Origin: a virus
Direction: 5' to 3' (one strand)
Length of the DNA: 53,905 nucleotides
IMG/VR virus record: IMGVR_UViG_3300009964_000006
Translations under genes and position numbers: made by a program
Notes under the pieces: model-generated
Databases searched by the model: none
What the model was told of the DNA's origin: nothing
What the model saw: the letters and a program-made list of their open reading frames with translations, nothing else
Shown: piece after piece, positions 1 through 36,398 of the stretch
Position numbering within the stretch: position 1 is the first letter of the stretch
Layout of the letters: the number at the start of each line of letters is the position of its first letter

Positions 1-1982
1 CCTTTTTCATCAAGCCAAACACCAAAGCCGTTAATGGTGCGTTCAAATCCCAATGTCTGGATAGCCTTCAGCAAAGCATTGCCCTCGCCATCAATACCAG
101 CCCCATTGTTAAATGCAACACCCTTTATAAACGTAATCAGTTCCTGTGCTGTGTCGGGGGTTAATTTGCTAAGAAAGCGTATATCGGTATAATTCTTTAT
201 AAGTTCAGTTACTTGTGCCGCATTTAAGCCTCCACCACCACTAAAATTGCCCGATAGGATATTGTTTACATCTTCCTTTAATTGCGAGATAGTGCCTTTT
301 ACGGCTTGGTTTCCAACAACTATCTCTTGTATAATCGGATAATCCAGCTTTGTAATGAGCTTTAAAATGCGTGTATTTAATTCATATCCGTTGCCATCGT
401 TGAATATAACCTTTTGTCCTATATACAAATTAGGATTGCTCTTTGCAAACTCTACAGCGTTAGAATGAAAGGAGTAGTTATTGTTGTCCTGTGTACGTCT
501 GTTTATCTCCTTTATGGTGCGTGCCGCCAATTCTTCTTGTGCTGCTTTTGTTTCATTCTCTCCCATAACTATATTGAAGAGAACAACAATATTGCAAGTG
601 TAATCGGGCTTATTCTTACCACGTGGATAAAGACCCTCGTTTTCGTTGGTAGGAATAATAATATCTCCGCTTTGATATTTCACAATCTCATACTCTCCTG
701 AAGATGCTGAAACATCTTTGTGGTATCGCAGTTCAAACCCATCTTGTCCGTTTGGCTGACCTACTAAACTTTGTGTAAGCGCATCGTATTTCCCATCAGT
801 AGTATGAGTATTGACCTTAAAGAAACCTTTTAAAGTGTGTCCTTGCAGTACTTGCTTCTTTACGTCTAACTCGTAGCTATACCAATAGTGAGTAACTATA
901 TTTCCTTGCTCGTCTTTATCGTTAGTGATGTTTACGAGTGTCTTTGTATTGTCTTTTATAGTAGTGGGATAGGCGAGGCTTATATACCAAATAGTATACG
1001 TCTTCTCCTTTCCATTGCTATCCAATTCTACCTTGTTAGTTTGGCTGTTCTTTAATTTCTTTACCACCTGACGGACATTATACACGTATAAATCAATATG
1101 CGGATAAACATCATCAAAGGAGAGAGCCAGCGTTTGCTTAATAGCCTTAGATGCTTCAAACTTTGCTTTAGTGGTTATCTTTCCATTCTCATCAATATAT
1201 ATATGTCCATCGGGGTAAATGGTTTTATCCAATCCTATTCTTGCAAGCGTAGCATAGTTACCCGTTCCAACCAATGCTTTACGAGACATATTCTTTGTTG
1301 AGCCTTGCGGATAGAAACAGTTATAGTAATTCTCTTTACTCTCACTGATAGACGGATATTGTATGTTGTCGTGCGCTTTTAGAATTGGCACATTCTCTCC
1401 CAGATTAATACTTACTTGTCCAAAGTATAATGTTCTATGCTTCCACGATAAATGCCACTCACACGGATTATTCTTACAGCCTTGAGCAATAGAAGAGAGT
1501 ACCGAAAGTATATCATTCGCTGACACAGAGAATGAAACAGACGCATCAACGTTACCGCAAAGAGTATAAGTAAATTTATTCTCCGTTATTCCTAACGCTT
1601 CATTGATTGCATCGCAAGCCTTTTGCAAAGCATTTGTCGTTAATCCATCGTACGACCATTCCTGTTGCTTAATAGGATTCTTATCCGCATCTGTGGTATC
1701 ATAGAGAAATGGCACACGGCTAAGCCACATCAAAGGGTGCTGAAACTCTGGAGTGTATTTGAAAGCCGTTGCATCTTCATTTGGCGTATACGGGTCTAAT
1801 AAGCGATATTTAATACCATCATCAAAAGGAACTATATACGCACCTACTGGCAAAGTAATCTTAATATCACTTTGCCACGATAAACGTATTAAGTTAGATT
1901 TACCTAACTCTTCCTCGTGTTCGGCACTCTCTGTCAAAGATGCTTCAAATATTTTACTATCGTTGATGTCGTATATTACCAT
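1..1982 (-). CDS. Large tail-tip/baseplate (Tal-like) protein, N-terminal 660 codons; continues across the circular junction into 52680..53778 (about 1026 aa in total)
   Basis: My translation of the minus strand from ATG 1982 (MVIYDINDSKIFEASLTESAEHEEELGKSN...) stays open to position 1. It is in frame with track ORF 52680..53852 through the 127-bp overlap ((1982-74) is divisible by 3). It is missing from the ORF track because no stop lies at this window edge. It follows the TMP and Dit-like genes. Confidence 0.85.
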   Translation of the reverse strand, partial: MVIYDINDSKIFEASLTESAEHEEELGKSNLIRLSWQSDIKITLPVGAYIVPFDDGIKYRLLDPYTPNEDATAFKYTPEFQHPLMWLSRVPFLYDTTDADKNPIKQQEWSYDGLTTNALQKACDAINEALGITENKFTYTLCGNVDASVSFSVSANDILSVLSSIAQGCKNNPCEWHLSWKHRTLYFGQVSINLGENVPILKAHDNIQYPSISESKENYYNCFYPQGSTKNMSRKALVGTGNYATLARIGLDKTIYPDGHIYIDENGKITTKAKFEASKAIKQTLALSFDDVYPHIDLYVYNVRQVVKKLKNSQTNKVELDSNGKEKTYTIWYISLAYPTTIKDNTKTLVNITNDKDEQGNIVTHYWYSYELDVKKQVLQGHTLKGFFKVNTHTTDGKYDALTQSLVGQPNGQDGFELRYHKDVSASSGEYEIVKYQSGDIIIPTNENEGLYPRGKNKPDYTCNIVVLFNIVMGENETKAAQEELAARTIKEINRRTQDNNNYSFHSNAVEFAKSNPNLYIGQKVIFNDGNGYELNTRILKLITKLDYPIIQEIVVGNQAVKGTISQLKEDVNNILSGNFSGGGGLNAAQVTELIKNYTDIRFLSKLTPDTAQELITFIKGVAFNNGAGIDGEGNALLKAIQTLGFERTINGFGVWLDEK

Positions 1983-2081
1983 ACGTGCAAAGATAGTAAG
2001 CGAGTGTTTTTATAAAGTATTAGAAAAAAACAGAAAAGCCACAACGTTTAAATTGTGGCTTAATTGTTGGATTGGGTTCGC

Positions 2082-2402
2082 TTACCGAACGAATCCAGGC
2101 ACGCTAACGATGAACCCCTTGTCGTTTCGCTTACACTCTGTGTGTCCTGTTGCGGGGGCAACGCAATCGGTTCTGCCTTGTGCCTTTGCTGCCGTCAGCA
2201 CTAATGCTGACACGATATACAGCGTGTTGTTGGCTGGCTCGGGCAATCCTGTAACTTGCCCAAATTCTTGTTCACACACGCCGTTCTCATCGAACTTGCT
2301 AAATGTTGCGCTAACTCTTGCCAGTCCCTCGCTGGCATACTCTCTACCATCATTCAATGTGATGGTGTGTGGGGTGTAATTCTTAAATGTTGTCATAATC
2401 AT
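2082..2402 (-). CDS. Hypothetical protein (106 aa)
   Basis: Track ORF 2082..2429 trimmed to ATG 2402 (MIMTTFKNYTPHTITLNDGREY...). The first track codons are just the translation of the hairpin at 2412..2428. Confidence 0.6.
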   Translation of the reverse strand: MIMTTFKNYTPHTITLNDGREYASEGLARVSATFSKFDENGVCEQEFGQVTGLPEPANNTLYIVSALVLTAAKAQGRTDCVAPATGHTECKRNDKGFIVSVPGFVR

Positions 2403-2411
2403 TAATTTGTA

Positions 2412-2436
2412 TGGGGTGGTTAGCCCCACGTTACCT
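2412..2436 (-). promoter_or_regulatory. Intercistronic RNA hairpin element, copy 1 (mRNA sense AGGTAACG-TGGGG-CTAACCA-CCCCA)
   Basis: 5-bp stem 2412..2416/2424..2428, 7-nt loop, conserved 8-mer 2429..2436. Same loop and 8-mer as 24246..24273, with a different (covarying) stem. Confidence 0.5.
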
Positions 2437-2881
2437 ATTTTAATTTATTTTCTAAATCTGATATTCTTTTGTAAAAGCCAGCTGTATGTGGTGATGTACC
2501 TAATTTTAGCACTGTGTAATCATAATGATGTAAATACTCGTGCAGTAATGTGGCTGCCATCTGCTTAATTGAAACTACTTGTTTCTTTATAGCAGTGATA
2601 TTATACAATGTTATTACTTGCAATGCAGGCGTATAAGTGCCTAAAGTCTTACGCCTCAACGTACCACGATAACCAGTGCTATGTGGTTGAGCACGATTTA
2701 CTACCCTTACAACTGGTACAGGTACTTTGAATCGTTCAGAAAGATAAGCACAAAGCATTTGTGCTTTCTTTTGGCGGTCTACAATGCTTTCAGTAGCTGA
2801 CAATACCGCCTTATATTCTTTGTGAGAGAGGCGGCTTAATTTTACCGCCTCAATCTTATTTGATTTCTCGTATGCGTTCAT
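2435..2881 (-). CDS. SprT/DUF45-like putative zinc metallopeptidase-motif protein
   Basis: 148-aa ORF with an HExxH motif (LLHEYLHHYD) followed by SPHTAGFYKRI, a pattern typical of SprT/WLM/DUF45-type minimal metalloproteases. Assigned from the motif only. Confidence 0.5.
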   Translation of the reverse strand: MNAYEKSNKIEAVKLSRLSHKEYKAVLSATESIVDRQKKAQMLCAYLSERFKVPVPVVRVVNRAQPHSTGYRGTLRRKTLGTYTPALQVITLYNITAIKKQVVSIKQMAATLLHEYLHHYDYTVLKLGTSPHTAGFYKRISDLENKLK

Positions 2882-2884
2882 AAC

Positions 2885-3211
2885 TTATGCTATTCTAACT
2901 AAGTTCGCTTTTTTGAAACAACGCCATTCGTCTTTTTCAGTGTCAAAGTACACTTGACAAGTGTCTGCTGTCTTTTTCTCGCCCTTTGTTGTAGGTATTC
3001 TATCACTCATAAGAGTGCCGTAGGCTTCACGCAAGCTGCCGTCTACCTTTTGAAAGTAGAACTTTACAACTCGCTTGCTAAGGGCTGCTTTTAGCTTAAT
3101 GTTTGCCCAAGCGCACTTTAACGCTTCTGATAATGTATAACCATTCTTGCGTACGAACTGCCAAGCAAGACTCATTACCTCTCTCATCGTGTTCTTTAAT
3201 GTTGTACTCAT
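2885..3211 (-). CDS. DUF2693-like phage protein
   Basis: 108-aa ORF. The C-terminal pattern FQKVDGSLREAYGTL...YFDTEKDEWRCFKKANL matches my memory of the Bacteroides phage-associated DUF2693 family. Confidence 0.5.
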   Translation of the reverse strand: MSTTLKNTMREVMSLAWQFVRKNGYTLSEALKCAWANIKLKAALSKRVVKFYFQKVDGSLREAYGTLMSDRIPTTKGEKKTADTCQVYFDTEKDEWRCFKKANLVRIA

Positions 3212-3258
3212 AATCTTTATAGTTTAATAGTTTTATACTTTGTTTCTTAATCACAATG

Positions 3259-3266
3259 CAAAGATA
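3259..3266 (-). promoter_or_regulatory. Bacteroidota -7 promoter box (TATCTTTG on the minus strand) for the 3211..2082 genes
   Basis: Plus-strand CAAAGATA is the reverse complement of the TAnnTTTG consensus, 48 nt upstream of ATG 3211. Confidence 0.5.
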
Positions 3267-3275
3267 TACATATTT

Positions 3276-3346
3276 GCGAACACTTACAAGAGGATGACAA
3301 CAAAATATTCGCATATTAGCGAACTTTAACAAATAAAGGTGTTCGC
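3276..3346. promoter_or_regulatory. Candidate operator set: GCGAACAC (3276..3283), GCGAAC (3319..3324), GTGTTCGC (3339..3346)
   Basis: 8-bp inverted repeat plus a third half-site in the divergent intergenic region upstream of the XRE regulator gene. Confidence 0.35.
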
Positions 3347-3410
3347 ATTTATGTATATTAAATGTTGTTAAGATTTGAAACGTATTTTTCGCACCTATGT
3401 ATATATTTTA

Positions 3411-3418
3411 TATATTTG
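3411..3418 (+). promoter_or_regulatory. Bacteroidota -7 promoter box TATATTTG upstream of the XRE gene
   Basis: Exact TAnnTTTG match only 4 nt before ATG 3423. This would give a near-leaderless mRNA, so the assignment is tentative. Confidence 0.35.
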
Positions 3419-3422
3419 TACT

Positions 3423-3695
3423 ATGAAACAAGATATAAGAATAAAAGAAATTTGCAAAGAGAAAGGTATCACATTAGAAGATTTAGCTAAAAGGTTAGGT
3501 ATTCTTCGCACATCGCTTTCTCAAGCGTTATCACGTAATAGCTTCAGCACGGATAAACTAAGTGATATTGCCAATGCTCTCAATGTCCCTATGTGGCAGT
3601 TGTTCGCATCGCCAGAGGAGGTGCAAAAGGAAAACAACAACATTGTTTGTCCCCATTGTGGGAATCCTATCAAAGTAACCATAATAAAGGAATGA
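3423..3695 (+). CDS. XRE-family helix-turn-helix regulator with a C-terminal CxxC tail
   Basis: MKQDIRIKEICKEKGITLEDLAKRLGILRTSLSQALSRN is a classic HTH_3 pattern. The C-terminus carries CPHCG. The stop overlaps the next ATG (ATGA at 3692..3695). Confidence 0.75.
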   Translation: MKQDIRIKEICKEKGITLEDLAKRLGILRTSLSQALSRNSFSTDKLSDIANALNVPMWQLFASPEEVQKENNNIVCPHCGNPIKVTIIKE

Positions 3696-5152
3696 AGTTT
3701 AATCACTACACATGGGACTTGTATAAACAAACCGATGTCGGCAAGAAAGCTATTAGTTTATTTGAAAACGCTGCCCATGATATATCTATATATGAACTTG
3801 TTTCCAAATATAATCCCATGGAGGCAAGGTTTTCAGATAAAGACAGTATGGAAGATTGTTGTGAACTTCTATGGGAACTTGCAATCAAGAAGATGCTATT
3901 GCCAACCAATATAGATGATGCACGAAATCTATACGAGCAAATAATAGATGGAGCGATATTGTTTGATGATGGAGAACCTTTTATAGAAAAAGCGGACTAT
4001 AAAACATATCTCATGGCTAATATGGATATATCTTTCATGTTGTTTTTCAAGGCTCCAGAGTATTTCTTTCCTAATATATTCCGATACCATTTCTTTGACC
4101 TTATAAAAGTATTTGATATATTTGACATAGAATTGCCATTACCACCTAAAAAGAGTAATTATAGGGCACGGTGTATGTATTATTGGGAACTATGCGAGAT
4201 ACTATATTCTTTTCGTAAAGAAAATGGACTATCTCCGTATGAGCTATGCGCTATGCTTTATGACTTTGGTCAAGGGCTTACAAAGAATATTCCAACAGAA
4301 TTGCCGAAACCATCTAAGGCTTGGTTTATTGGCGGTAAGATTATGCCAATAGAAGATTTGGATTTTACATTTTGGCAAGCTAATGAGGATACTATGCGAG
4401 GAGATATTCTCATACACTACGAAACCTCTCCTATATGTGCAATAACATGTATGTGGATAGCCCAAATAGATGGTGTTATAGACCCGTTCTTTTATTACTA
4501 TGCTAACACATACATAGGAAGTAGAATAAAGCTACCACATGTAACTTTGCAGGAATTAAAGAACGATGAATACTTTTCTTCTCATCCACTTGTCAGGAAA
4601 AACTTTCAAGGAGTAAATGGATGGGAAATAAGTAATAGGGATTATCAAGAGTTTTTGCGAATAATACAGACAAAAAAGTACGATACAAGTAAATTACCAG
4701 TCTTATATGCACCTAAAATAGCTTGTACAAATATAAAATTAGAGAAAGATGTAGAAGAACATTTATTAATACCTTTACTTGATAGTATGGGTATGACAGA
4801 CTACATGCGACAAGTTCCATTACGGGCTGGATGCGGTGAAAGAATATATCCTGATTTTGCGGTGCATTGTACAAAAACAGATAATGGCTACATTGCCAAA
4901 GTACTTATAGAAGCAAAACTTTCCATGCGCAACAAAAAAGAAGTGTATGCAGCATTTCAACAAGCTAATTCTTACGCACATTTGTTAGAAGCACCTATTA
5001 TAATTCTCTGTGATAAGGAAATGCTTCTTGTTTATACAAATGAAAATGGATTTAATAGGAATAGATACAAGAGATTCTTTTGGGAGGATATGGAAAATCC
5101 AGATAGTTTTAACGAACTAAGACAAATAATTAAACTGAAATCTCAAATGTAA
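3692..5152 (+). CDS. 486-aa protein with a C-terminal PD-(D/E)xK nuclease module (HSDR_N/Mrr-like) and a possible central PUA/EVE-like module; candidate defence nuclease
   Basis: The ATG at 3692 is translationally coupled to the XRE gene. Motif YPDFAV...(x17)...LIEAK...QQANSYA lies at about 4847..4960. The central segment WFIGGK...RGDILIHYETSPICAITCMWIAQ resembles an EVE/ASCH-type beta-barrel (weak, by eye). Confidence 0.65.
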   Translation: MKFNHYTWDLYKQTDVGKKAISLFENAAHDISIYELVSKYNPMEARFSDKDSMEDCCELLWELAIKKMLLPTNIDDARNLYEQIIDGAILFDDGEPFIEKADYKTYLMANMDISFMLFFKAPEYFFPNIFRYHFFDLIKVFDIFDIELPLPPKKSNYRARCMYYWELCEILYSFRKENGLSPYELCAMLYDFGQGLTKNIPTELPKPSKAWFIGGKIMPIEDLDFTFWQANEDTMRGDILIHYETSPICAITCMWIAQIDGVIDPFFYYYANTYIGSRIKLPHVTLQELKNDEYFSSHPLVRKNFQGVNGWEISNRDYQEFLRIIQTKKYDTSKLPVLYAPKIACTNIKLEKDVEEHLLIPLLDSMGMTDYMRQVPLRAGCGERIYPDFAVHCTKTDNGYIAKVLIEAKLSMRNKKEVYAAFQQANSYAHLLEAPIIILCDKEMLLVYTNENGFNRNRYKRFFWEDMENPDSFNELRQIIKLKSQM

Positions 5153-5366
5153 TCAAATGTTAAAAATCAACATCTTTATAAAGTAGACATTGATATCAGC
5201 ATTAACATCAACATTAACACCTTCCACTTTAATAAATATATTATATAATAAATATAATAATTAATAATTATACATTATAATTTACATTCAAAATACATTT
5301 TTGAATGCTATCTATCTCTTTTAAAACATATTTTTCATTTTTCTTGCCTTTGTCAATGATTATGTT

Positions 5367-5374
5367 TACTTTTG
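5367..5374 (+). promoter_or_regulatory. Bacteroidota -7 promoter box TACTTTTG
   Basis: TAnnTTTG match 30 nt upstream of ATG 5405, after a 250-nt AT-rich spacer. Confidence 0.5.
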
Positions 5375-5404
5375 CAGGAAACAATAATTAAAAACGATAA
5401 AATT

Positions 5405-5956
5405 ATGAAAAAGTATTTTATTGCATTGTTCGTCTTACTTGTATCTATACCATCTTTGTGTCAGGATTATACAGAGTTTATGGGTATAAGTATGAATAAT
5501 AATCGTTTTCCCTTTGTAAAAACACTGGAAAGGTTGGGATTTTTTCTTGACAATCTTGATATTTCTGAACCTAACATAACGGCTGTTATATATAGAGGTA
5601 AATATTTAGGGTTAAATAGTAGTGTTTTTATAAGGGATAATACTGCAAAAAACAAAGTCGAATATATATCCGTTTCAATAGATGTCAAAGCAAACGATAC
5701 AATATCATCAAGACGGAATTATATTAAGGCGTATGAGTTCCTATCAAACAAGTATGATTGGGTAGATGCGCGCTTTTCTAAAGAAATAGGAGAGCCTTTC
5801 TTTGCGTATCAATTAAAGATGTTGTTCGATGATAGAATATTATTGATGTATGTTAAGAATATAAATGAGTTTAATGGAGACGTGAAATATATTCCTACGA
5901 TTATTTTTCGTCCCTTACCGCTTGGAATATCAAGAAGCAAAGAAGATTGTAAATAA
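5405..5956 (+). CDS. Secreted protein or lipoprotein (accessory gene)
   Basis: MKKYFIALFVLLVSIPSLCQ is a signal peptide with a lipobox-like SLC. It has its own promoter box and terminator, and its orientation is opposite to the flanking tail genes. Confidence 0.7.
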   Translation: MKKYFIALFVLLVSIPSLCQDYTEFMGISMNNNRFPFVKTLERLGFFLDNLDISEPNITAVIYRGKYLGLNSSVFIRDNTAKNKVEYISVSIDVKANDTISSRRNYIKAYEFLSNKYDWVDARFSKEIGEPFFAYQLKMLFDDRILLMYVKNINEFNGDVKYIPTIIFRPLPLGISRSKEDCK

Positions 5957-5957
5957 A

Positions 5958-5986
5958 GGGTAGCCGTTAAGCTACCCTATTTTTAT
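5958..5986. terminator. Bidirectional rho-independent terminator
   Basis: Stem GGGTAGC/GCTACCC (5958..5964 / 5971..5977), followed by a T-run on the plus strand and preceded by an A-run. Confidence 0.7.
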
Positions 5987-6399
5987 ATTCTATTTGTCGG
6001 GTTCGGTTCTATGAAAGCAAGTCCGAGTTTTGCAAAGGTTCGCTCCGTGTTCCTTGCAAATGTGCAACTTTTCCCCGTGTATTTCAGATGATACACATCG
6101 GGGCTATCATCGGGAACTTGTATAGATACATCGCCTTTGCGCAATTCTTCTACAAATGCCCTATTTTTTGTGTTGAAGTCGCTTGTATCGCTCCCCTCCA
6201 TAGTGAAATTAAGCGTTAAGTTTCTTTCATTTACTTTAGGTATAACATTAGCATACTGCACGCCATCTTTTAGTCGGTCGTTATTGGTTATATATTCTTT
6301 CAGCGGATAATATCCATTGATGGTGTCCAAAAAGCTATCTCCCATGCGAACGCCCCACGTCCTTAATGCATCTTTTCCGTTTATCAATAAATCTGCCAT
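5983..6399 (-). CDS. Small distal tail protein (Dit-like)
   Basis: 138-aa ORF directly after the tape measure gene (3-nt gap). N-terminus MADLLINGKDALRTWGV is typical of Dit-type proteins. Called from position and motif. Confidence 0.55.
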   Translation of the reverse strand: MADLLINGKDALRTWGVRMGDSFLDTINGYYPLKEYITNNDRLKDGVQYANVIPKVNERNLTLNFTMEGSDTSDFNTKNRAFVEELRKGDVSIQVPDDSPDVYHLKYTGKSCTFARNTERTFAKLGLAFIEPNPTNRI

Positions 6400-6401
6400 A
6401 A

Positions 6402-7966
6402 TTACATATCTTTAATTTTCCTTTTAATGTCTGAAACATCATTACTCATTACTTTTATAAACTTATTCATCGAAGTAGTATCATCGTGAATGCCTTGCAG
6501 TTCCAAATAAGAATTGGCAAGTATCGTCCTCGTTTCGTCAGCGATAGACTTCTGGTCGAAAGATGACAACTGTATCACTTTCATTGATACATCTAAGGAG
6601 CTTAATTTAGATGACAAAATATCTTTTATTTGGTCTCTCGATATATTCCCTGCCGTTGTGAGTGCGATAATGTTAGTTGCCTGCTCATAGGTAATAGACG
6701 AAACTCCGTTTGCTGTGGCTTTCTGTGCGGCATTTTCATCTGAATAGCCCATATAAGATGCGAGGTTGTCTGTTTTCTTTTTAAGTTCCTCCATCTTTTT
6801 AGAATATTCGGACTTGTAAGCCTCATAATCCGACTGCGACATATCGCCATCAGATAGTTTCTTTGCCCATTTGTTCTGAAAATCTTTTAACCACTTGTCA
6901 AAATCATCGTTTAATACACTTCTGTTTACCAAAGACTTAAACAACATCTTTGCAAAATTGTTACTCCAGTCCTCTGCATCAGCATTCATATCCATTAGGG
7001 TATCCAAAAAAGAACTTCTAAGACTGTCGAACGATGTCTGTGTGAGATTGTTCTTTATTTGTTCGGTGAGTTTCTCTGTCTTTCCTGCCTGCTCTACTAC
7101 TGCGTCCCAATATTCTTTCTTATCATACTTACCTACTTCGGTGAGATATTTCCACAAGTTAGGAGCAAAATCTCTTATCGCTTTGAGCTGTTCAGGGGAT
7201 AGACTATAAATGGAACTAAGTCCCGTTATATTTGCGCTGTCCACCCCTGCTGCAGCAAAAGCACGTTGAGCATCTTCATTATAAGACGCTATCTTGCTGT
7301 CGCTTGCGTATGAGTTGTTTGAATGATGTGCGGAATGATAACCCATTTGCTTTTTGAGAATCTCCATACTATTGGCATTTATCTCTTTTTGTGCTTTGAG
7401 TGCCGTTTCGTATGCATTGACAGCCTTATTTCCTGCCGAGTTTCCTATTCTTTCAGAAAGGCTATCTATCCGTTTTCCTAACTCTTCATTAGACTTTGTC
7501 AGCCTTTCGGTTGTCCTTGCGACTTCCTTTTCGTTGCCGCCACCGATGCCAAGCATAGAACCAAAAGACTTAATGGCTGAAATTCCTTTGAGAGCTGCAC
7601 CGATATAATTGCCACTTGCAAAGTCTCCTGCTGCTCCTGCCGCACTGTTGAACGCATCGAGACCTTTGGAAACCTTATCCCCAGCCTTACCAAGACCGAT
7701 TGAGCCGAGTAGGTCGGGAAGTTGGTCTATGCCCTTGTCTTCAATGAACTCTTGCTTGCCATAAAACCAATTAGCAATCTTCTGTGCTGGCTTCTCCTTT
7801 GCTCCGTCTTCTGCCTGCTTCGCTTTGTTCGTTGCCGTTATGGTATTCTTCCTTGCTTCGGCAAGTTTAGCTTCAGCAACAGCCAATTTTTGAAGTATGG
7901 GAGACATAGATTTGAACTTCTCATCTGTAAGGTCAATTTTACCATTTAGCGAAGATGTGGAAATTT
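6402..7966 (-). pseudogene. Tape measure protein, C-terminal fragment (518 codons), separated from its N-terminal part by an IS
   Basis: Track ORF 6402..7907 extends in frame upstream (TSSLNGKIDLTDEKFKS) to the IS junction. It is coiled-coil and Gly-rich. Confidence 0.85.
7959..7966. repeat. Target-site duplication GGAAATTT (left copy)
   Basis: Identical 8-mer at 9088..9095, directly abutting both IS termini. Confidence 0.9.
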
Positions 7967-9087
7967 GGCTTAATGGTCAAATGTACTCCTGAAAGGGGGC
8001 AAAAATGCTCTCTTTTTCATTTAATGGTCAAATGTACTCCTATAATAGTTGAACTCCCTAGTGTTTATCGGGGTTGTAAGCCCCTAATATGTTTCCAATA
8101 AGCAGTTCTCGCTTCTCTTTCGAAAGTCCACGATGAAGACGCAATCTCATCTTCAATACAGAGTTAAGAGATTCAATAGCATTGTTAGTGCGTGGAACTT
8201 GATCGGCAGGGAAATTCTCAAAGGTAAATAGTGCATTTAGATTGCGTTTTAAACTATAAAAAGCACTTCTCATTCTTCTATGAGTGAAGTGACATTTGCC
8301 ATCTTCACTATAAGACTTCTCTTGCAAAAAATATTTCCACTTTTGCTCCCATTTTTCAAGAGATGTCTCAAAGTCTAGACGACTGGATTGTGTAAGTTGA
8401 TGCGCCAATGCCTTGAGTTCTTTGGCCGCAGGTAAGCGAGGATTAGTGGTGAGCAAATGTCTTATTCGCTGAAGCTGATGAAACTGACAATACTGATAAG
8501 GTATTTCAGGAAATGCTTCCTTAATACCTGATAATGCGTCACTTACAATGGCTCTGATTGTAAATCCTTGATCTTGGAGACAGGAAATTCCAGCTTGATA
8601 ATCAGAAATTCTCTCCTTACCACGTAAGAAGCGATAATGCAAGACTTTGTGTGTTGTTGCATTCATAAAAATGACTACTCCAAAGTTTCGCCCCCAATAG
8701 GTGGCATCCATTTGTAGCGTTATAGCAATGGGATGAATTCTGCAAGAAACATCCTGATTTTGGGGTACGTTTTTGAGATATCGTTGTAGGGTAGAAACTG
8801 AAATACCATATTTTTGAGCTGTTTCAAGCAATGTATGGCGCCCTTGTAAATAGAACTCAACAATGGCTGCCTTATTAGGCTTTTCACGACCACTAAAATA
8901 GCATTGACAACTCTTGCAATACCAATACGAGGAACCACGTTTAACTCCTTTGCGGATTACATCATGAGAACCGCATTTCTGGCACTTTTTTTATGATGAT
9001 TTTCCATTATAGCATTATAAACACCTGCAAAGGTATGAAAAAGAGAGCATTTTGCCCCCTTTCAGGAGTACATTTGACCATTAAGCC
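7967..9087 (-). mobile_element. Insertion sequence, 1121 bp, IS1595-family-like (ISPna2-group-like)
   Basis: Terminal inverted repeats of about 53 bp (7967..8020 vs 9035..9087, one 1-nt indel) with termini starting GGCTTAATGG. An extra subterminal copy of TTAATGGTCAAATGTACTCC lies at 8021..8040. 8-bp TSD and a single transposase ORF with an N-terminal zinc ribbon. Confidence 0.9.
8058..9007 (-). CDS. IS transposase (zinc ribbon + DDE-type core); needs a -1 shift or one extra A in the A7 tract at 8986..8992
   Basis: ATG 9007 gives MENHHKK, then A7G. The -1 frame continues KCQKCGSHDVIRKGVKRGSSYWYCKSCQCYF...HTLLETAQKYGISVSTLQRYL...DATYWGRNFGVVIFM... to the stop at 8058. The track ORF 8058..8831 begins at an internal TTG. 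Confidence 0.75.
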
Positions 9088-9095
9088 GGAAATTT
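9088..9095. repeat. Target-site duplication GGAAATTT (right copy)
   Basis: See 7959..7966. Confidence 0.9.
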
Positions 9096-12000
9096 CATCT
9101 AATGACATATTAATGCCAGCCGAAGACAATTGTTTCTGTGCTTCCTGCTTTACTTCGTTAAGCCTCAATGCTTCGGTGGCTTCCTGGTTTCGGGCAACAT
9201 TTAGCCTTTCTTGTGCATCTGCCGCTTCTTTAAGCCTTCTATTATGTTCTCTTGTCTTTTCTCCTATGAAGTTCCAAATACCTTGTTGTTTGCCGAGTTC
9301 TTCGTCGATAGCATTTATTTTTTCAGAAACGACCTGCATTTGGTCGATAGGAAGATTTCCACTGCTTAAAAGGTCCTGTAATTGGTCTCTTAATCCCAGC
9401 AAGTAGTCTTTCGTATGACCCTGCAAATCAGAGAAAATGCCATTCCAATCAATACTTGTGTTTATATTGTCTTCTTTGGCTTTTTCTATCTCCTTATCAC
9501 GCTGCATCTGTAAAGTGGCTTTTTCTCCAACAGATTTAGCGTTTTGCATTTTCTCTTCGTACTCTTTTGTAATAGCAAGTTTCTTTTCCTCGAATGAACC
9601 GTACTCTTTAAGATAACTATTTAATGCATCTACTTCTTCCTGCTGCCATTTTTTGCGCTGTGCGGTATATTCTTTATCCGCCTTACTTATCAACGATTGT
9701 AAGTAACTTTCCTGGTCTGTGGTGAGCTTTATCTCCTTGTAACTCTTTTTACCCTCTTCGGTGTCAGAATAAACTTTTGTTTTGTCAGTGTTTTTATTAT
9801 CCCAATCTCTCTTATTTTCGTCATATTTTGCCTTACGTAGGTCATCAGCTTCCTTGCGTACTTGTCGTATTGTCTTATCATATTGCAGCTGGTAAGCGGC
9901 ACGTTCTTTCTCTCCTGCATCAGTGATTGATGCAATACGTTCTTCTTCTTTTGCTTCAGCTGCTTTTATAGCATCTTCTTCTTCCTTATTTTTTCTTGTT
10001 ACATTAGATTCAAATACATACTCTCTTTTTTTTGCTGCTTCCTCTTCTGCTTTGTTGGCTTCTGTGGCTCGTTTCTTCGCTTCTCTTTCAGCCTGCTTCT
10101 GCTTTCTTTTAGCCTCTGCCTCTGCTTTCTTTTTTTCTTTTTGAGATGTTTTAATCTCTTGCTGTGTAGTACTGCCACTTAGGGATTTGTACGCTTGTTC
10201 CGCATCTTCGTATTTTTTCTTTGCCGTTGCAACATCAGACACCGAACCTCTTTTTTTCGCTTTCTCGTATTCAGCCTTAGCTTCTGCTGCTTTTTTTCTT
10301 GCATCTTTAACCGCCTTAGTCCATTTAATATTATTTTCTTTTTTTGTCGGTTTTATTCCATAAGCTATTTCATTCTTCTCTTCTTTGGAGATGCCATTCA
10401 TAGCGGCAAATTGGTCCAGTGCTTCATCTGCTGATACCTGCGTTTGCCTCATATAATTGGCATCAGAGATACCACTTGTAGAAAAAAACGAACTATGTAT
10501 GGGTCTTATCATACTGCGAACTGTAGTCTTTTTCCCATTGAAGATTATCCGTTGGTCAAGTCCACTCCCTGTTGCAGCATATTGGTTTACAAATCTCATC
10601 AACAGATTAGCTGTTTGTTGCCCATAAGCTCTAGCCAAAGCACCCCAAAGTTCTCCTCTTCTTTTTTGTATATCATCTTGCGCTGCCGCTGTGTTCTTGT
10701 CGTAGAATTGCTTTAACTGTCGTGCGGCTACACTCTTGCGAATTGCAGCTGTCAGTCTGTCGTATGAGGACGTCAATGTACCTGTACGGTCAATCTCGGC
10801 TGCAAGTCTACTGTCATATTGCCCATATTGTTCAATAATAGCATCTTTCGCTGCCTTCCATTGCTTAGTACCTTTCTTTGCCTGTTCTAATTCTGCTCTT
10901 AAGCCATTAAGCTTGTTTATTTCAATTTCAGCTGACCTTGCCACATCTCTATTAGCCTCGTCTAATCTGTCTTGTGCTGCTGAAGTGGCATCAGCCCTCT
11001 TTGAAACTTCCCATACTGCCATTCCAAATGCAGCGATGGCTGCCGCTGCAAGAACATAAGGATTAACAAGCAATGTAGCATTTAAAGATGCTACTTGTTT
11101 TTGTAATATACCCGTAACTACACTTAAAGATGTCGTTCCTGCTATTGATGCTGCACGTGAGATTACCATTGCCTTTTCGAGTGCGATATTCAAGATTAAC
11201 CCTGTGCGATACACTCCGTATGTAAGTATTAGACCTTCGAGTATCTTTCCTATTGTTTCATAGTTTTCTACGAGGAAAGTACCTGCCTGCACGGCTTTCA
11301 TTACGACACCTTCACCTTTCTTTCCTATCTCATTGAACATATTATCAAAGCTCTCCTGCAACATTGAAATCTGCCCGTTGAGCGTCTTTGCGCCCTCTGA
11401 TGACATACCAAAGAACTTACCTCCTGCCGATGTAGCAGATATAAAGGCATCCTGCACCATCTTTGAAGTGATAGCACCTTTCGACATCTCGTTTTTGAGT
11501 TCACCGATAGATTTACCCGTCTTGCGAGCGATTTCCTCAAGCGGGTTGAACCCAGCATTGACCATTTGCATGAGGTCCTGTCCCATCAACTTTCCTGCAC
11601 TACTCATCTGTGAGAAAGCAAGTGCAAGAGAGTTGAATTTACCAGTATCGCCCATAGAAATGTCGCCTATAGCCTTTAGATAGTCTATTGACTTTTCCGC
11701 CTCTATTCCAAAGGAAGTCATCATCTGTACCGCACCGACCATATCCTTTGTATTAAGCGGAGAAGCAAGAGCATACTCTTTAATTTGTCCCATTAAGTTA
11801 TCAAGTCGTTGCTGACTACCACCTAATAAGACCTTAAGAGAAGTCTCCATACTCTCAAACTCACCTCGTACGGAGATTATATGGCTTGCAAGTTCCTTTA
11901 GCCCCATACCGCCTATCACCATGCCGCTAATAGACTTTAATTTGCTTGTCAGCAAATTCATCGTATCTGCAGTTCCTCCGCCCTCTTCTCTAAGTAAAGC

Positions 12001-12492
12001 ATATTCATCACGGAGTCTTTTTACTGATAAACGTGCAGTAGCTTGTTCTTGGGTAAGGTCAAATAAAGCGTACTTCTGCTCTGCAAGTGCATCTTTCGCT
12101 TCTTTCAGCTTTGTAGCTATTGGAGAAATAGAACGCTCATATTTTCCCATTGAGCGATATTGTTCTGTAAGTGTCCTAATCTCTTCTTTGGTGTCTGCGA
12201 TAATCTTCTTTTGCTTTATTATCTCTTCTGCAAAATGATTTACACTTTGCGATGCGTCAAAAATCTTCTTTTTGAAGTCTCCCTCGATAACAGCGGATGC
12301 CTGTGCGATTCTACCCGTTACGCTGTTTAACTCTTTAGAAGTTGTCTGTAGTTTATCGTTGAGATTATTAAAGGAAGTAGGATTCTGAATAGCATCAGTA
12401 TTCTTTATTTCCTGCTTTAACTTATTAATCTCATCTCTTAATTTTTGGACTTTCTCCCAATCTGCTTGTATCTCGAATTTTAACTTTGCCAT
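9088..12492 (-). pseudogene. Tape measure protein, N-terminal fragment (1135 native codons)
   Basis: Track ORF 9007..12492. Its last 26 codons (GLMVKCTPERGQNALFFIPLQVFIML) are read from the IS end. Long coiled-coil, Lys/Glu-rich, with a hydrophobic central segment; lies downstream of the chaperone genes. Confidence 0.85.
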
Positions 12493-22811: not shown

Positions 22812-23495
22812 TTATTCTTTGTTATCCTGTTTATAATTTTCTTCAAATAAAATTCTCTCGCTCATTGGAAACACTTTGTATATCTTCTCTAAGTCCTGCG
22901 GATAGTGCTCGTTAAGCCATGTGAAGCAATCTATGTTAAAGCCAATTCCATTGCTTGCCTTGTTACCGTATAAAACTGGTTGTGGTAAACGCTTCATACG
23001 CATATATGCTTTAACGTCTTTCTGCGTCCACGATGCAAGCGGATAGACTAAGCCGTTATTCTCATACTCGTTAGCTTCATAGCCTTTAAGCATAAGGTTT
23101 CGGTTCATGCCGTCCGCTTTCTTCATGCCTAAGAATGTATAATACGCCCCTGTCTTTAACCTCACCGCCTTAATCACATCAGCGAGTTTCAGTAGCTTTA
23201 CTTTCGGATTAGGAACGCAATACAGACCGCCACGAAGAATATAAGTTAAATTCCAATGAGGAACTTGTATAAACTCTACCTTTGGATATTTCTTCTTCAC
23301 CCACCTTATCCAACCATTAATGTGGTCTAAGTCCTTAACGAAGTACATAAACACACATACAACTCTTTCAAAGCGTGGATAGACTAAATCCAAAGTAACG
23401 AGCGAATCCTTGCCAAGAGAACACATAACGATGCAAGATGACTGCTTTTCAGCCACCCTGCATATTACGTTATGTGCTTCTTGTAACTTGTTCAT
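22812..23495 (-). CDS. Phosphoadenosine phosphosulfate (PAPS) reductase-family protein (IbrA/DndC-like PP-loop)
   Basis: N-terminal PP-loop variant VMCSLGKDSLVTLD, 227 aa. Confidence 0.7.
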   Translation of the reverse strand: MNKLQEAHNVICRVAEKQSSCIVMCSLGKDSLVTLDLVYPRFERVVCVFMYFVKDLDHINGWIRWVKKKYPKVEFIQVPHWNLTYILRGGLYCVPNPKVKLLKLADVIKAVRLKTGAYYTFLGMKKADGMNRNLMLKGYEANEYENNGLVYPLASWTQKDVKAYMRMKRLPQPVLYGNKASNGIGFNIDCFTWLNEHYPQDLEKIYKVFPMSERILFEENYKQDNKE

Positions 23496-26316: not shown

Positions 26317-27516
26317 CTATACTTTTAGAACGTAATCTAAAAGTTTTACATTAGCATCGTTTATGTGGCTAAAATCCTTTTTAATGTATAGTTCCGTTAT
26401 CTTCAATGATTGGTCAGTGTGGTTTAGCATATCATTCACTATATACTTGCTTATTTTCACGTCATTTACGGCAATCGTAGCCATAGAATGCCTGGCAGCA
26501 TAGAATTGTAGACGCTCAATGCCAATTTCTTTACCTATATCCTTTAGTCCAATGTTTATCGCACGGTTGAAACTCTCCATAGTTGCAAACCTCTCATAGA
26601 AGTTAAATACACGCTCTTTACCCTTGTATTTCTCAATTAGCGGTTTGATATAATCTGTTATTTTCACTTGTATTTCAGCCTTATCTCTCCGCCTATCTTT
26701 TGTTTTCATGCGGTCATATACTATTGTATTCCCATCGATTTCGGTGGCATTAAAGAGGTCAGCAGAGTTCATTCCCATAAGGCAGAATGAAAGACGAAAA
26801 CAATCTAATGCTAAATCATGACGGCTGGACTTTCCTTTTACCTTGATATTGTCATAGGGTAGGGCGAATATTCTCCGTATTGTTTCTACGTCTAATGCTC
26901 GTTTTTCAGCTATGTTCTGCTCTACTGGTTTATATCTGTCTAAGGAGTGCTTAATTCGGATAATATCATTATCTTCATCATTATAATACTCCCTTGCAGC
27001 GTTGAATATTGTTTTGATGCAGTTAGGGTATAGAGATTGCGCCCTTTGACGGTCTTTTAATGTGTTCTCAAAGGCTTTCATTGTCTTAACGTTGATTTCC
27101 TCACAGAGGATATTATCACGCCCTACAAAGGAACACAAAGCATTCAGAGCCGTTTTGTAGTTCTTTATGCCTTTAATGGTTGATTCCTCAATCCATTTTG
27201 CTGCAAATTCCGTGAATGATACCCCTTTATTTTCTTTCTTTTGTCGGATATAGGAAACGATGGTATCGATGTCTATGTCGTTAAATTCAAGGCTTAATTC
27301 GCTTAATCTATTCCTATATTCTTTTATTATATCATTGCACCTATCGAGTATATTTGCATTTTTTATCTTGAATGAAGCTGTAATATCCTTTTTAGTGATA
27401 TACATCGTGGTAGGAATGTATCTTGTTTTATTAGTGTGAGTAAACCGAATGTGTACACTCCACGTTTTATCGCTTCGCATTCGGTTTTTAAATATAGTTG
27501 GTTTGAAAGTTGCCAT
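26317..27516 (-). CDS. int: Tyrosine site-specific integrase (Bacteroides phage/CTn type)
   Basis: 399 aa from ATG 27516 (MATFKPTIFKNRMRSDKTWSVHIRFTH...). C-terminal catalytic-region pattern ...FYAARHSMATIA...LNHTD...YI. The track's extra 66 N-terminal codons read through the attP/tRNA fragment and are rejected. Confidence 0.85.
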   Translation of the reverse strand: MATFKPTIFKNRMRSDKTWSVHIRFTHTNKTRYIPTTMYITKKDITASFKIKNANILDRCNDIIKEYRNRLSELSLEFNDIDIDTIVSYIRQKKENKGVSFTEFAAKWIEESTIKGIKNYKTALNALCSFVGRDNILCEEINVKTMKAFENTLKDRQRAQSLYPNCIKTIFNAAREYYNDEDNDIIRIKHSLDRYKPVEQNIAEKRALDVETIRRIFALPYDNIKVKGKSSRHDLALDCFRLSFCLMGMNSADLFNATEIDGNTIVYDRMKTKDRRRDKAEIQVKITDYIKPLIEKYKGKERVFNFYERFATMESFNRAINIGLKDIGKEIGIERLQFYAARHSMATIAVNDVKISKYIVNDMLNHTDQSLKITELYIKKDFSHINDANVKLLDYVLKV

Positions 27517-27653
27517 ATCTGCTAAAAGTCTGCTAAATGTTTTTGTTATTACTTGTGAGGAATATATACTACTTGTAATATTCTTATATTGTAGAATTAG
27601 TGTATAAAAAAAGCGAAAATCCTTTTTTTTATTGGATTTCCGCTTGTTTTTTA

Positions 27654-27698
27654 TGGGGTGGAAGGTGGGACTCGAACCCACGACATTCAGAACCACAA
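27654..27698 (-). other. attP core: 45-nt copy of the 3' part of a tRNA-His(GTG) gene (anticodon loop to CCA)
   Basis: Minus strand reads TTGTGGTTCTGAATGTCGTGGGTTCGAGTCCCACCTTCCACCCCA, with T-arm GTGGG-TTCGAGT-CCCAC, acceptor 3' strand and CCA. No matching 5' half is present. It is flanked by the 10-bp inverted repeat TTCCGCTTGT / ACAAGCGGAA (27638..27647, 27695..27704) and lies 138 nt upstream of int. Confidence 0.75.
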
Positions 27699-27871
27699 GC
27701 GGAATATTTTGCACGTGTAATATGTTGATGTATAGCGATTTTGTTATTTGTTGCTTATGTTCTGTTAAATATATGCTAAAGTTTCTTTATGCAACCAATC
27801 CTTGTCCTCTAAAAGCATTCCTTTAAGTCCCTGCGCTTTCTTTGCACTAACTTTTTGTACTTCCCCATATT

Positions 27872-28558
27872 TTACACAATTCTTTGGCTGACTATTCGAA
27901 TAGCTTTCCACATTCCTCTTATCTCTGTACGACCTACTTCCATTTGCCCATATAATGGATTATCTGATTTTAAAGTAATAATGTTGTTGATAAATAAACT
28001 GTTTTTAAGAATCCGCTTTATAACGAACATTTTGCCATACACCACAAAAACCACGCCCGATAATTCCTCCCATCTTTCTTCGGGTATTCGCATTGCAAGG
28101 ACTTTTGCCTTGTCTGGGATTGTGGGAACCATACTTTCTCCTACAACTTTAAACACCACATATTCTCCACTATTCAAATCTTCTCCTTCTTCTTGCATTA
28201 CTCCGTACTTATCAACGTTATAGTGCTGGTCGTACATATTTTCTATGAACGTAGCAGCAGCATCAGCGTCCACTATCGGCACTTCTATCAATTCATCATT
28301 GATGTATGTCTTTATCGGCTGTGCATTGCTCGGTTCTGTAAGGAACATAGAACCTTCGCCATTTACAAGCCATTTATACGAAACATTAAGATTATCACAT
28401 ATAGCATTTATTAATTTCGGTGCTACATTCCTATCTCCGTTGAGTATTTTAGACAAATTAGACTGATTGAAATCAATCATCTTTGCAAACTTAGATGGAG
28501 ATACATTCTCGTGTTCAATGAGTATTTTAATCCTCATTACAATATTCTTATTCTCCAT
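27872..28558 (-). CDS. CI/LexA-like repressor (XRE HTH + S24 peptidase domain)
   Basis: N-terminal HTH (SPSKFAKMIDFNQSNLSKILNG). C-terminal S24 motifs GESMVPTI (Ser nucleophile) and FVIKRIL (Lys). Confidence 0.85.
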   Translation of the reverse strand: MENKNIVMRIKILIEHENVSPSKFAKMIDFNQSNLSKILNGDRNVAPKLINAICDNLNVSYKWLVNGEGSMFLTEPSNAQPIKTYINDELIEVPIVDADAAATFIENMYDQHYNVDKYGVMQEEGEDLNSGEYVVFKVVGESMVPTIPDKAKVLAMRIPEERWEELSGVVFVVYGKMFVIKRILKNSLFINNIITLKSDNPLYGQMEVGRTEIRGMWKAIRIVSQRIV

Positions 28559-34235: not shown

Positions 34236-34306
34236 CGATGTATAGTGTAATGGTAGCACAACAGATTTTGGTTCTGTCAGTGGTGGTTCGAGTCCGCCTA
34301 CATTGA
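34236..34306 (+). tRNA. tRNA-Gln (anticodon TTG)
   Basis: Hand-folded cloverleaf: acceptor CGATGTA/TACATTG, D stem GTGT/GCAC, anticodon stem ACAGA/TCTGT with loop TTTTGGT, T arm GGTGG-TTCGAGT-CCGCC. 71 nt with no encoded CCA. Confidence 0.8.
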
Positions 34307-34321
34307 CTTAAATTTATAATT

Positions 34322-35229: not shown

Positions 35230-36398
35230 TGTATAAACTTCGTGATTATCAACAAAAGGCTTCCGATACAGCGGTAGCCTTTTTTAATGATAAGAAAGCA
35301 AAGTATAACGCTATTATGGTGATGCCTACGGGTTGTGGGAAATCATTGGTGATAGCTGACATTGCAAATAGACTGCAAGGACATACGCTTGTCTTTCAGC
35401 CGTCAAAGGAAATCCTGGAACAAAACTACAAGAAACTATGCTCCTATGGGATAATTGATTGTGGTGTGTATTCAGCATCATTTAATTCAAGAAATATCAA
35501 CCGAATAACCTTTGCAACAATAGGAAGCGTAATAAGACATATAGATGACTTTCAGCATTTCAATAACGTAATCATAGACGAATGTCACTTTGTTAATGCA
35601 AAGGGTGGTATGTATGAAGAATTTATCCACGCTACGGGGTGCAAGGTGTTAGGGCTTACCGCCACTCCTTACAGGCTAAGCTCAAGCAGCTTTGGCGCAA
35701 TGCTAAAGTTCCTTACTCGTACCCGTCCAATGATATTTTCAAAGGTTATCTATCAAGTGCAAATATCGACATTACTCGATATGGACTTTCTTTCAAAGAT
35801 AGATTACTTCCAAATGAACCCATTAGGGTGGGACGAGAATAACCTGCAAAAAAAATCAACGGGTGCTGACTATACGGATAAATCAGTAGAAGCAGAGTAT
35901 AATAGAATTGACTTCTACGGCTATTTAGTCAGCATCGTGAAACGACTACTTTGCCCAAAGCGTGGCGGAGCAAGGAAAGGCATATTAGTCTTTACTCGCT
36001 TTCTGAAAGAGGCTGAACGACTGACACAAAGCATTGATTGCTGCGAAATGGTATCGGGAACAACGCCAAAGGCAGAACGTGAACGCATATTAAACGACTT
36101 TAAGAACGGTAAGATAAAGGTTGTTGTGAATGTAGGAGTATTGACAACAGGCTTTGATTACCCTGAACTTGATACGGTGGTTATGGCACGCCCTACGATG
36201 TCGCTTGCCATGTACTATCAGATAGTAGGTAGGGAGATTCGACCATATAAGGATAAACAAGCGTGGTTTGTAGACCTTTGCGGAAATATTAACCGATTTG
36301 GCAAGGTTGAGGACTTGAAGCTCATTGACACCAATGATAAAGGCAAATGGGCGGTGTTCAGTAATGGTAAACAATTAACAAATGTGATATTTCAATAA
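35226..36398 (+). CDS. SF2 DEAD/DEAH-box DNA helicase
   Basis: Walker A MPTGCGKS, DEAH-type box IIDECHF, motif III LGLTATP. Confidence 0.8.
   Translation: MMYKLRDYQQKASDTAVAFFNDKKAKYNAIMVMPTGCGKSLVIADIANRLQGHTLVFQPSKEILEQNYKKLCSYGIIDCGVYSASFNSRNINRITFATIGSVIRHIDDFQHFNNVIIDECHFVNAKGGMYEEFIHATGCKVLGLTATPYRLSSSSFGAMLKFLTRTRPMIFSKVIYQVQISTLLDMDFLSKIDYFQMNPLGWDENNLQKKSTGADYTDKSVEAEYNRIDFYGYLVSIVKRLLCPKRGGARKGILVFTRFLKEAERLTQSIDCCEMVSGTTPKAERERILNDFKNGKIKVVVNVGVLTTGFDYPELDTVVMARPTMSLAMYYQIVGREIRPYKDKQAWFVDLCGNINRFGKVEDLKLIDTNDKGKWAVFSNGKQLTNVIFQ

Follow-up and report, generated by a model that had tools for sequence, protein, structure and literature searches.

What role does a protein with a restriction-type nuclease domain play in a phage when its gene lies among the tail genes and directly behind a small regulator gene? 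The question is raised by the IMG/VR virus record IMGVR_UViG_3300009964_000006, whose whole stretch of 53,905 nt was analysed and is called the window here. Between its Dit-like and Tal-like genes lies an island with plus-strand genes for a 90-aa helix-turn-helix (HTH) protein of the XRE type and a 486-aa protein. A preliminary description, made from the sequence alone, had read the pair as a small controller with a modification-sensing nuclease, i.e. a PUA-superfamily reader joined to a PD-(D/E)xK domain. From its family, its predicted structure and the neighbourhoods of its relatives, the 486-aa protein is probably a single-chain, modification-dependent (type IV-like) nuclease that is expressed in the lysogen, and its gene a prophage accessory ('moron') gene.

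Family and predicted folds of the 486-aa protein

The stop codon of the XRE gene and the ATG of the 486-aa gene overlap as ATGA, and the boundaries given for both genes in the preliminary description were confirmed (Table 1). The 486-aa protein was matched over its full length by phrog_37753 ('unknown function', E 1e-176), and at least 700 homologues (704 at E ≤ 1e-3), nearly all from Bacteroidota, were retrieved; because of these 704 homologues and the end-to-end PHROG match, the open reading frame (ORF) is regarded as a real gene. When a profile of the middle region was searched against 1.84 billion representatives, the family came to about 320 clusters at 50% identity (322 in this search), nearly all of which share the same 480-540-aa architecture. 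With our own domain hidden Markov models (HMMs), the order N-terminal domain, reader, nuclease was detected in 115 of 149 representatives, the remainder being mostly fragment-like. No Pfam match at E ≤ 0.1, no NCBIfam family and no PDB sequence match were obtained for the 486-aa protein with the single sequence and with profiles. PADLOC did not call it a defence gene and returned a single weak match, REase_MTase_IIG (E 6e-4), at the nuclease region only (aa 409-480). Because reader and nuclease both lie under the Pfam thresholds, the family goes without annotation or under the wrong name 'type I R subunit', and database names of homologues include 'type I restriction enzyme R protein' and 'type I restriction endonuclease subunit R'.

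A first AlphaFold2 (AF2) model, based on 30 close homologues, left the conserved middle region unfolded (predicted local distance difference test score, pLDDT, <50), and with this model Foldseek found nuclease matches only. The second AF2 model was computed from an alignment of 111 sequences, taken from the 50%-identity representatives and 26-84% identical to the query, and had a mean pLDDT of 95.8 and a predicted template modelling score (pTM) of 0.90. Residue conservation was computed over the same 111 sequences, and 96 family members were scanned with Pfam.

The nuclease assignment of the C-terminal domain was upheld by fold and by conservation. Foldseek matched aa 350-486 to an HsdR fragment (3h1t), Cas4 (4r5q), DrdV (7lo5), BpuSI (3s1s) and 3ijm, and the best match in BFVD was an HSDR_N-domain phage protein. 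Among the relatives scanned, Pfam HSDR_N was found in 21, HSDR_N_2 in 13 (both at E ≤ 0.01, best 8.9e-6) and RmuC in four. The window protein itself scores under the HSDR_N / HSDR_N_2 gathering thresholds (PF04313 / PF13588); it has the fold and the complete motif set D...ExK...QxxxY, as D388, E407-x-K409 and Q424xxxY428. D388 is invariant, and E407, K409, Q424, S427 and Y428 are kept in at least 90% of the sequences. The combination of QxxxY with PD-(D/E)xK is a signature of the RecB family and HsdR (PMC2475608). All strings quoted earlier for the protein (YPDFAV, LIEAK, QQANSYA, WFIGGK and RGDILIHYETSPICAITCMWIAQ) are present in its translation.

For the middle domain (aa 203-345), Foldseek against the PDB gave 2gbs (TMt 0.67), 1zce (0.61), 2hd9 (0.57) and 2ar1 (0.55), each with a probability of at least 0.99 and with alignments that cover almost the entire target structure; all four are EVE-domain structures (PF01878). 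ASCH and YTH structures scored lower (TMt 0.35-0.49), so that the PUA-superfamily barrel, for which both EVE and ASCH had been named as models, proved to be EVE-like. At the level of sequence the resemblance is faint: Pfam EVE was found in three of the 96 relatives, each time under the threshold (best E 0.0031, 17.9 bits against a gathering threshold of 23, in P0170, where the match falls within the middle domain), the window protein is likewise under the PF01878 gathering threshold, and a middle-domain profile search had no canonical EVE protein among its best 150 matches, all of which belong to the same family. W228 and D238 are invariant in the barrel; judged from the alignment, this aromatic and acidic pair would fit a base pocket.

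The first 200 aa match nothing in Pfam, NCBIfam, PDB sequences, PDB folds or BFVD, in agreement with the preliminary description; the BFVD fold search likewise returned no full-length analogue. This all-helical domain accompanies the reader domain in the 115 representatives with the full architecture.

Prophage repressors and a TIR effector beside the same putative sensor

Neighbourhoods were surveyed with one genome per species, which gave 28 loci, and neighbouring genes were called with our own HMMs. All but one of the loci are from Bacteroidota, and the closest are Prevotella metagenome-assembled genomes (83% and 78% identity). A repressor gene lies immediately upstream on the same strand in 15 of the 28 loci, namely a CI-type HTH+S24 repressor in 13 and a short XRE protein in two, which are the closest relatives; a divergent WYL_2 gene was found in 12. 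Four unrelated Bacteroides-type prophage lineages have the CI-type HTH+S24 repressor followed by the nuclease gene at the prophage edge, where the pair adjoins the integrase or host genes and diverges from WYL_2 and the early operon (AAA_24, DUF3127, NinG). The arrangement expected of a repressor-operon gene was thus observed, the nuclease gene being co-directional with and adjacent to a repressor and apart from the lytic operons.

The upstream partner varies. The CI-type repressors of the relatives have no similarity to the window XRE protein, and a derivation of the latter as a truncated CI/S24 repressor was ruled out on the same grounds; one locus (L017) has an extra gene between repressor and nuclease, and several loci have no upstream HTH gene. 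The earlier view of the small HTH protein as a dedicated controller was therefore abandoned, since most relatives have the unrelated CI-type repressor in that position, or nothing. The remaining loci include prophage-like regions with other HTH genes, loci beside a RelE-like toxin, UvrD-like helicases or WYL-like regulators, and a few copies that stand by themselves. Overall the homologues are found in prophage lysogeny modules and islands and not in replication cores, as the preliminary description had predicted for a defence gene, and no methyltransferase was found beside them in the neighbourhoods examined.

In L008-L012 (84% identity) the cassette likewise lies between Dit-like and Tal-like genes, with KilA-N/ANT antirepressor-type genes on the divergent arm (3900-6400), whereas L022 has it at a distance of about 2 kb from the integrase; because it occupies the Dit/Tal interval in the window and in L008-L012 and an integrase-proximal site in L022, the cassette moves as a unit.

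Two complete relatives, P0134 (L019 506-2287) and P0140, have the N-domain and the reader without the PD-(D/E)xK nuclease. Both begin with a TIR_2 domain (E 2e-13 and 3e-10), followed by the N-domain, the EVE-like barrel and a C-terminal beta-rich domain of about 85 aa. Such an exchange of effectors, nuclease against TIR with the sensor kept, is typical of defence proteins.

Two further groups of homologues were noted. A subfamily of 634-641 aa on Prevotellaceae chromosomes (L038, L040, L043 and L047; also P0124) begins with about 150 additional aa, an N-terminal domain for which Pfam gave no match, and its neighbours (UvrD-like helicases, a conserved 900-aa protein and WYL-like regulators) have the look of a defence island. 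The sole non-Bacteroidota genomic homologue, from Moraxella equi (L048 7998-9493), consists of two overlapping ORFs among housekeeping genes and is probably a frameshifted pseudogene.

Control region, island and phage genome

The XRE protein matched Pfam models above their thresholds (HTH_3, E 3.6e-9; HTH_26, E 1.1e-8; Phage_CI_repr, E 2.2e-6) as well as PHROG families of transcriptional regulators and repressors. In the divergent region ahead of its gene, the 17-bp sequence ATATACATANNTGCGAA is present in three exact copies (3264-3280, +; 3342-3358, -; 3388-3404, -), and every other site in the window has at least three mismatches; at up to three mismatches, 8 sites were counted against 2.9 ± 1.7 expected, a number reached in 0 of 100 shuffles. 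A palindrome, TTCGCATATTAGCGAA, was read from the sequence at 3308-3323. Two boxes of the Bacteroides-type -7 form (TAnnTTTG) were also read: TATATTTG at 3411-3418 (+), right ahead of the XRE start, and TATCTTTG on the minus strand (3266-3259), which is overlapped by the first ATATACATANNTGCGAA copy. Both are putative promoters; a sigma-70 promoter scan gave no enrichment over shuffles, with a model that is uninformative for Bacteroidota. The ATGA overlap, the three 17-bp repeats and the upstream palindrome might be those of a restriction operon under a C-protein; the PADLOC match to 'Control_protein' is weak (E 0.0011), and the cassette contains no methyltransferase with which a controller of that type could coordinate.

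Comparison with L008 located the variable part of this switch. The XRE protein shares 69% identity with an 85-aa HTH protein that L008 has in the same place; the two diverge in the recognition-helix region, and their last 26 residues differ at one position. At the nucleotide level, the WYL_2 gene is 86-92% identical and the XRE gene 3' end with the nuclease gene start 92-97% identical, as against 28-54% for the operator region with the 5' half of the XRE gene, which places a mosaic boundary inside the XRE gene (window 3336-3700; L008 6640-7010). L008 has other palindromes, two copies of GTAAATAATATTATTTAC. Because the recognition region of the repressor and the operators were replaced jointly, as in heteroimmune immunity regions, it can be argued that the XRE protein binds the repeats. 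It has the look of a repressor for a small divergent switch of an immunity-like kind, and it also seems to control the WYL_2 arm. The conserved tail with its lone CPHCG might contact the nuclease, or might simply mark the recombination joint.

Table 1. Positions of the features of the island and its flanks in the window
Feature	Position	Strand	Remarks
Tal-position protein, ~1,026 aa	1982 down to 1, over the circular junction to 52680	-	phrog_17422
115-aa protein of the divergent arm	2082-2429	-	
HExxH protein, 148 aa	2435-2881	-	SprT-like (weak)
WYL_2 protein (Sm-like SH3 barrel)	2885-3211	-	divergent partner of the repressor-nuclease operon; Pfam E 9.3e-23
Divergent control region with operator-like repeats	3212-3422	between WYL_2 (-) and XRE (+)	~210 bp
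XRE/Cro-CI-type HTH protein, 90 aa, C-terminal CPHCG tail	3423-3695	+	first gene of the operon, putative repressor
Three-domain protein, 486 aa	3692-5152	+	helical N-terminal domain, EVE-like reader, PD-(D/E)xK nuclease
N-terminal all-helical domain, aa 1-200	3692-4291	+	family-specific; pLDDT ≥92 in each block
EVE-like PUA-superfamily beta-barrel, aa 203-345	4298-4726	+	putative modified-base reader
HsdR_N / RecB-type PD-(D/E)xK nuclease domain, aa 350-486	4739-5149	+	
Downstream cargo ORF, 194 aa from TTG	5372-5956	+	signal-peptide/lipoprotein-like
Terminator-like hairpin, bidirectional, 22 nt	5957-5978	both strands scored	AGGGTAGCCGTTAAGCTACCCT (+ strand reading)
Dit-position tail protein	5983-6399	-	phrog_6305

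The first 127 bases of the window (1-127) are identical to the last 127 (53779-53905), and the assembly is therefore circular, and its true length is 53,778 bp. The window represents an entire, circularly permuted genome, that of a temperate Bacteroidota phage from a Prevotella-type lineage. The Tal-position gene is accordingly split over the ends (N-terminal part 3-1982, C-terminal part 52680-53849, both minus strand). The minus-strand order is tape-measure gene, Dit-position gene, an island of about 4 kb, and Tal-position gene. The position of the island between Dit and Tal was thus as first described; its extent was not, since it reaches beyond 3212-5152 to about 1983-5982. The G+C content is 0.23-0.37 in the island and 0.38-0.47 in the flanks. 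The plus-strand arm, on the opposite strand to the tail operon, holds the XRE gene, the 486-aa gene and a lipoprotein-like ORF; the minus-strand arm holds three non-tail genes. By megablast, the island had no match among GenBank phages.

On the minus-strand arm, the WYL_2 protein is 64% identical to its counterpart at the same relative position in an unrelated prophage (L001). The HExxH protein could be a protease-type antirepressor, and the 115-aa protein, tried as a truncated KilA-N/ANT antirepressor, was rejected for lack of similarity to the proteins of the relatives. Downstream of the nuclease gene, a 220-bp stretch of 23% G+C precedes the cargo ORF (region 5153-5956), which likely starts at MKKYF (MKKYFIALFVLLVSIPSLCQ, at 5405) and had no match in Pfam, PHROGs, PADLOC or NCBIfam; in close relatives the slot holds unrelated genes (90 aa, 169 aa). 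The ORF may or may not be co-transcribed with the nuclease gene, and its product might be a superinfection-exclusion lipoprotein. The hairpin behind it has a T-rich tail on either strand and separates the plus-strand cassette from the convergent Dit-like gene.

The canonical lysogeny module lies elsewhere (integrase, 26317-27714; CI-type HTH+S24 repressor, 27872-28558), and the 486-aa gene is missing from it. An N6_N4 DNA methylase is encoded at 36398-37153 (E 1e-25), 31 kb from the cassette, and a PAPS-reductase-like protein (phrog_424) at 22812-23495; both had been anticipated, whereas the ParB and ASCH genes named with them were not located. A protein right at the threshold for nSTAND3 NTPases (37733-38317) and a tRNA-Gln(ttg) gene (34236-34307) were also recorded. 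The tape-measure gene is interrupted by a 1.1-kb insertion sequence (IS)-like element (7967-9087), which leaves parts at 9007-12492 and 6402-7907; its terminal inverted repeats of 38 bp match perfectly (7967-8004 and 9050-9087), and between them lies a short minus-strand ORF for a transposase of the Mutator/IS256 type (8058-8831, 257 aa). The tape-measure proteins of relatives are uninterrupted (1498-1808 aa), and the window phage, with its split gene, may be defective.

Proposed role, alternatives and known systems

According to the reading that we favour, the EVE-like barrel, together with the helical N-domain, would recognise a modified base on nucleic acid that enters the cell, probably by flipping that base out as VcaM4I's EVE domain has been shown to do, and the HsdR_N/RecB-type domain would then cut DNA. 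Through the ATGA overlap the nuclease gene would be translationally coupled to the Cro/CI-type HTH protein, which probably binds the repeated 17-bp sites. In the lysogen the nuclease would be made from the repressor operon with the divergent WYL_2 arm kept off, and superinfecting phages with the cognate modification would in this way be shut out by the resident phage; the repressor of the operon would be the main CI in most prophages and the short XRE protein in the window phage. Because the phage encodes an N6/N4 methylase (36398-37153), the reader presumably does not recognise an N6/N4 mark. The lack of a methyltransferase in the cassette speaks for this reading, as do the features expected of a moron: a position on the strand opposite to the tail operon, low G+C and a terminator-like hairpin.

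Several points weigh against it. The function of every family member is a prediction, and expression in the lysogen is deduced solely from the position of the gene. EVE-type domains also bind RNA or other ligands. The EVE assignment comes from a structure prediction for which the Foldseek E-values were modest (1.6e-3 to 0.12), the window protein itself being without a Pfam match and further support coming from three sub-threshold relatives, and PADLOC gives no defence-gene call beyond the weak match at the nuclease domain. The role of the obligatory N-domain could alter the picture, the phage's own N6/N4 methylase means that the specificity must be assumed to spare self DNA, and some homologues stand alone among housekeeping genes (L044-L046).

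If the N-domain and barrel sensed a cue other than DNA modification (RNA, a modified tRNA, a phage protein or a nucleotide), the protein would instead be an infection-triggered exclusion or abortive-infection nuclease, non-specific and acting on DNA or RNA. The site next to a repressor would fit abortive systems of the rexAB type, the TIR-bearing relatives resemble abortive-infection effectors, most of which respond to a trigger and are not directed at a substrate, the obligatory N-domain suggests a more complex sensor, and RNA is the classical ligand of EVE and PUA-like domains (PMC6765204). We nevertheless consider a triggered nuclease rather unlikely: the nearest structural matches of the barrel are EVE domains, the sole EVE-nuclease studied in detail reads 5-methylcytosine and 5-hydroxymethylcytosine (5mC/5hmC) in DNA, HsdR_N/RecB-type domains are DNA nucleases, and the invariant aromatic and acidic barrel residues suit a base pocket. 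Less likely still is a role in the life cycle of the phage itself, be it DNA processing or recombination, degradation of host DNA or regulation of lysis and lysogeny. Such a role would agree with the tight linkage to the repressor/WYL_2 switch in many prophages, and in a phage that modifies its own DNA (N6_N4 methylase) the reader could act on self; against this, the gene is missing from the phage's canonical repressor-integrase locus, the cassette shifts between genomic positions (Dit/Tal, or about 2 kb from the integrase in L022), and homologues also occur outside prophages and exchange their effector for TIR, which is the behaviour of accessory defence genes.

The order of the two genes also recalls a type II toxin-antitoxin module with an XRE antitoxin and a nuclease toxin that would stabilise the prophage: the small HTH gene comes first, the nuclease gene follows with the ATGA overlap, the repeats would suit autoregulation, and the XRE protein matches the HigA, HipB and PezA antitoxin models. 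These matches are weak, with scores far under the cut-offs, the partner varies (13 of 28 loci have an unrelated S24 repressor, two a short XRE protein, and the others none or an unrecognised one), and L017 has a gene between repressor and nuclease, so that we regard such a module as very improbable. That the protein is a fragment of the type I restriction enzyme HsdR, as the names in the source databases and the HSDR_N-type similarity would have it, is refuted by its domain content and deserves next to no credence: no ResIII or Helicase_C domain was found in the protein and no hsdM or hsdS in the neighbourhoods examined, and a complete three-domain architecture of 480-540 aa is kept in 115 of 149 representatives.

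Beyond the modification-dependent nuclease as such, a wider scheme is conceivable, which we put forward tentatively and with more doubt than confidence. The N-domain and EVE-like barrel would together be a portable sensor for foreign nucleic acid that bears modifications. Built into the repressor operon, it would be a kind of 'rex locus' in temperate Bacteroidota phages and would drive either a restriction-type nuclease or a TIR effector. In the Prevotella-type lineage of the window phage, the sensor-nuclease, WYL_2 and an exchangeable repressor/operator cassette would have been moved to the tail region, where they would constitute a second immunity region, comparable to immI of P22, in which heteroimmunity is coupled to the restriction of modified phages.

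The general design is known, the 486-aa family is uncharacterised, and no paper on it was found in the literature searched. Distinctive are the obligatory N-domain, the sub-threshold reader and nuclease, the repressor linkage, the TIR-swapped relatives and the relocation of the switch to the tail region. The defence genes that gut and oral Bacteroidota phages carry have been mapped only poorly. If the family is modification-dependent and expressed from repressor operons, it would be a widespread factor in the exclusion of one phage by another in human-associated Bacteroides and Prevotella, base-modified phages would be a significant pressure in those communities, and a new reader/nuclease pair and a reader/TIR pair would be at hand for studying or detecting modified bases. 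The locus also illustrates neatly how a defence gene travels in company with a repressor/operator cassette that can be exchanged.

The combination of domains had been thought possibly undescribed; its core, EVE-PD(D/E)XK, is in fact listed in a computational catalogue among the architectures that putative type IV restriction enzymes show (Bell, Wolf, Koonin et al. 2020, BMC Biol 18:159; PMC7641849). Like that class, the 486-aa family unites an EVE-type reader and a PD-(D/E)xK nuclease in one chain without a cognate methyltransferase, occurs in mobile or defence contexts and has divergent EVE domains that need sensitive methods; the window protein shows the reader at fold level, intact nuclease residues and no methyltransferase in the operon. 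By the description of the class, the family differs in its obligatory 200-aa helical N-domain, in a reader under the Pfam EVE thresholds, in an HsdR_N/RecB-type nuclease with QxxxY and in its habitual place in the repressor operon of Bacteroidota prophages. It is not the family of the 'END nucleases', in which an inactive EndoIII domain serves as sensor (PMC12191111). The working model is taken from the modification-dependent EVE-HNH endonucleases VcaM4I and TspA15I (Lutz 2019, PMC6765204; Pastor 2021, PMC7897488), which follow the same logic of an EVE reader and a nuclease: VcaM4I takes up 5mC/5hmC in a hydrophobic pocket by base flipping and is able to restrict T4gt (Pastor 2021, PMC7897488), and its linker and reader autoinhibit the nuclease (PMC6765204, PMC7897488). 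These enzymes have an HNH nuclease, an N-terminal EVE domain and no extra helical domain, and are chromosomal and not repressor-linked. Fusions of PUA and PD-(D/E)XK were found to be rare (Lutz 2019, PMC6765204); YenY4I (EVE-DUF3427-PD-(D/E)XK; PMC6765204) likewise has a PUA-type reader and a PD-(D/E)xK nuclease on one chain, but no DUF3427 was found in the 486-aa protein, and domain order and partner domains are unlike.

The best structural matches of the nuclease domain, HsdR (EcoR124I; V. vulnificus 3h1t) and the type IIG enzymes (BpuSI, DrdV), have the same D...ExK...QxxxY; unlike them, the 486-aa protein has no translocase, methyltransferase or target-recognition domain, and the reader would select the target. 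In genomic position the likeness is to prophages. Defence genes next to a repressor are a familiar theme, as in lambda, where rexAB lies downstream of cI, and in P22, with immI (mnt-arc-ant) and with sieA in the late region. The proteins are unrelated to those encoded here, and the XRE protein as immunity repressor and the arm genes as antirepressors are putative. The arrangement is nevertheless alike: as with rexAB, the family gene lies immediately downstream of the prophage repressor and on the same strand in most relatives, and as with immI, a second, repressor-controlled divergent switch lies in the late/tail region, with KilA-N/ANT genes on its other arm in close relatives.

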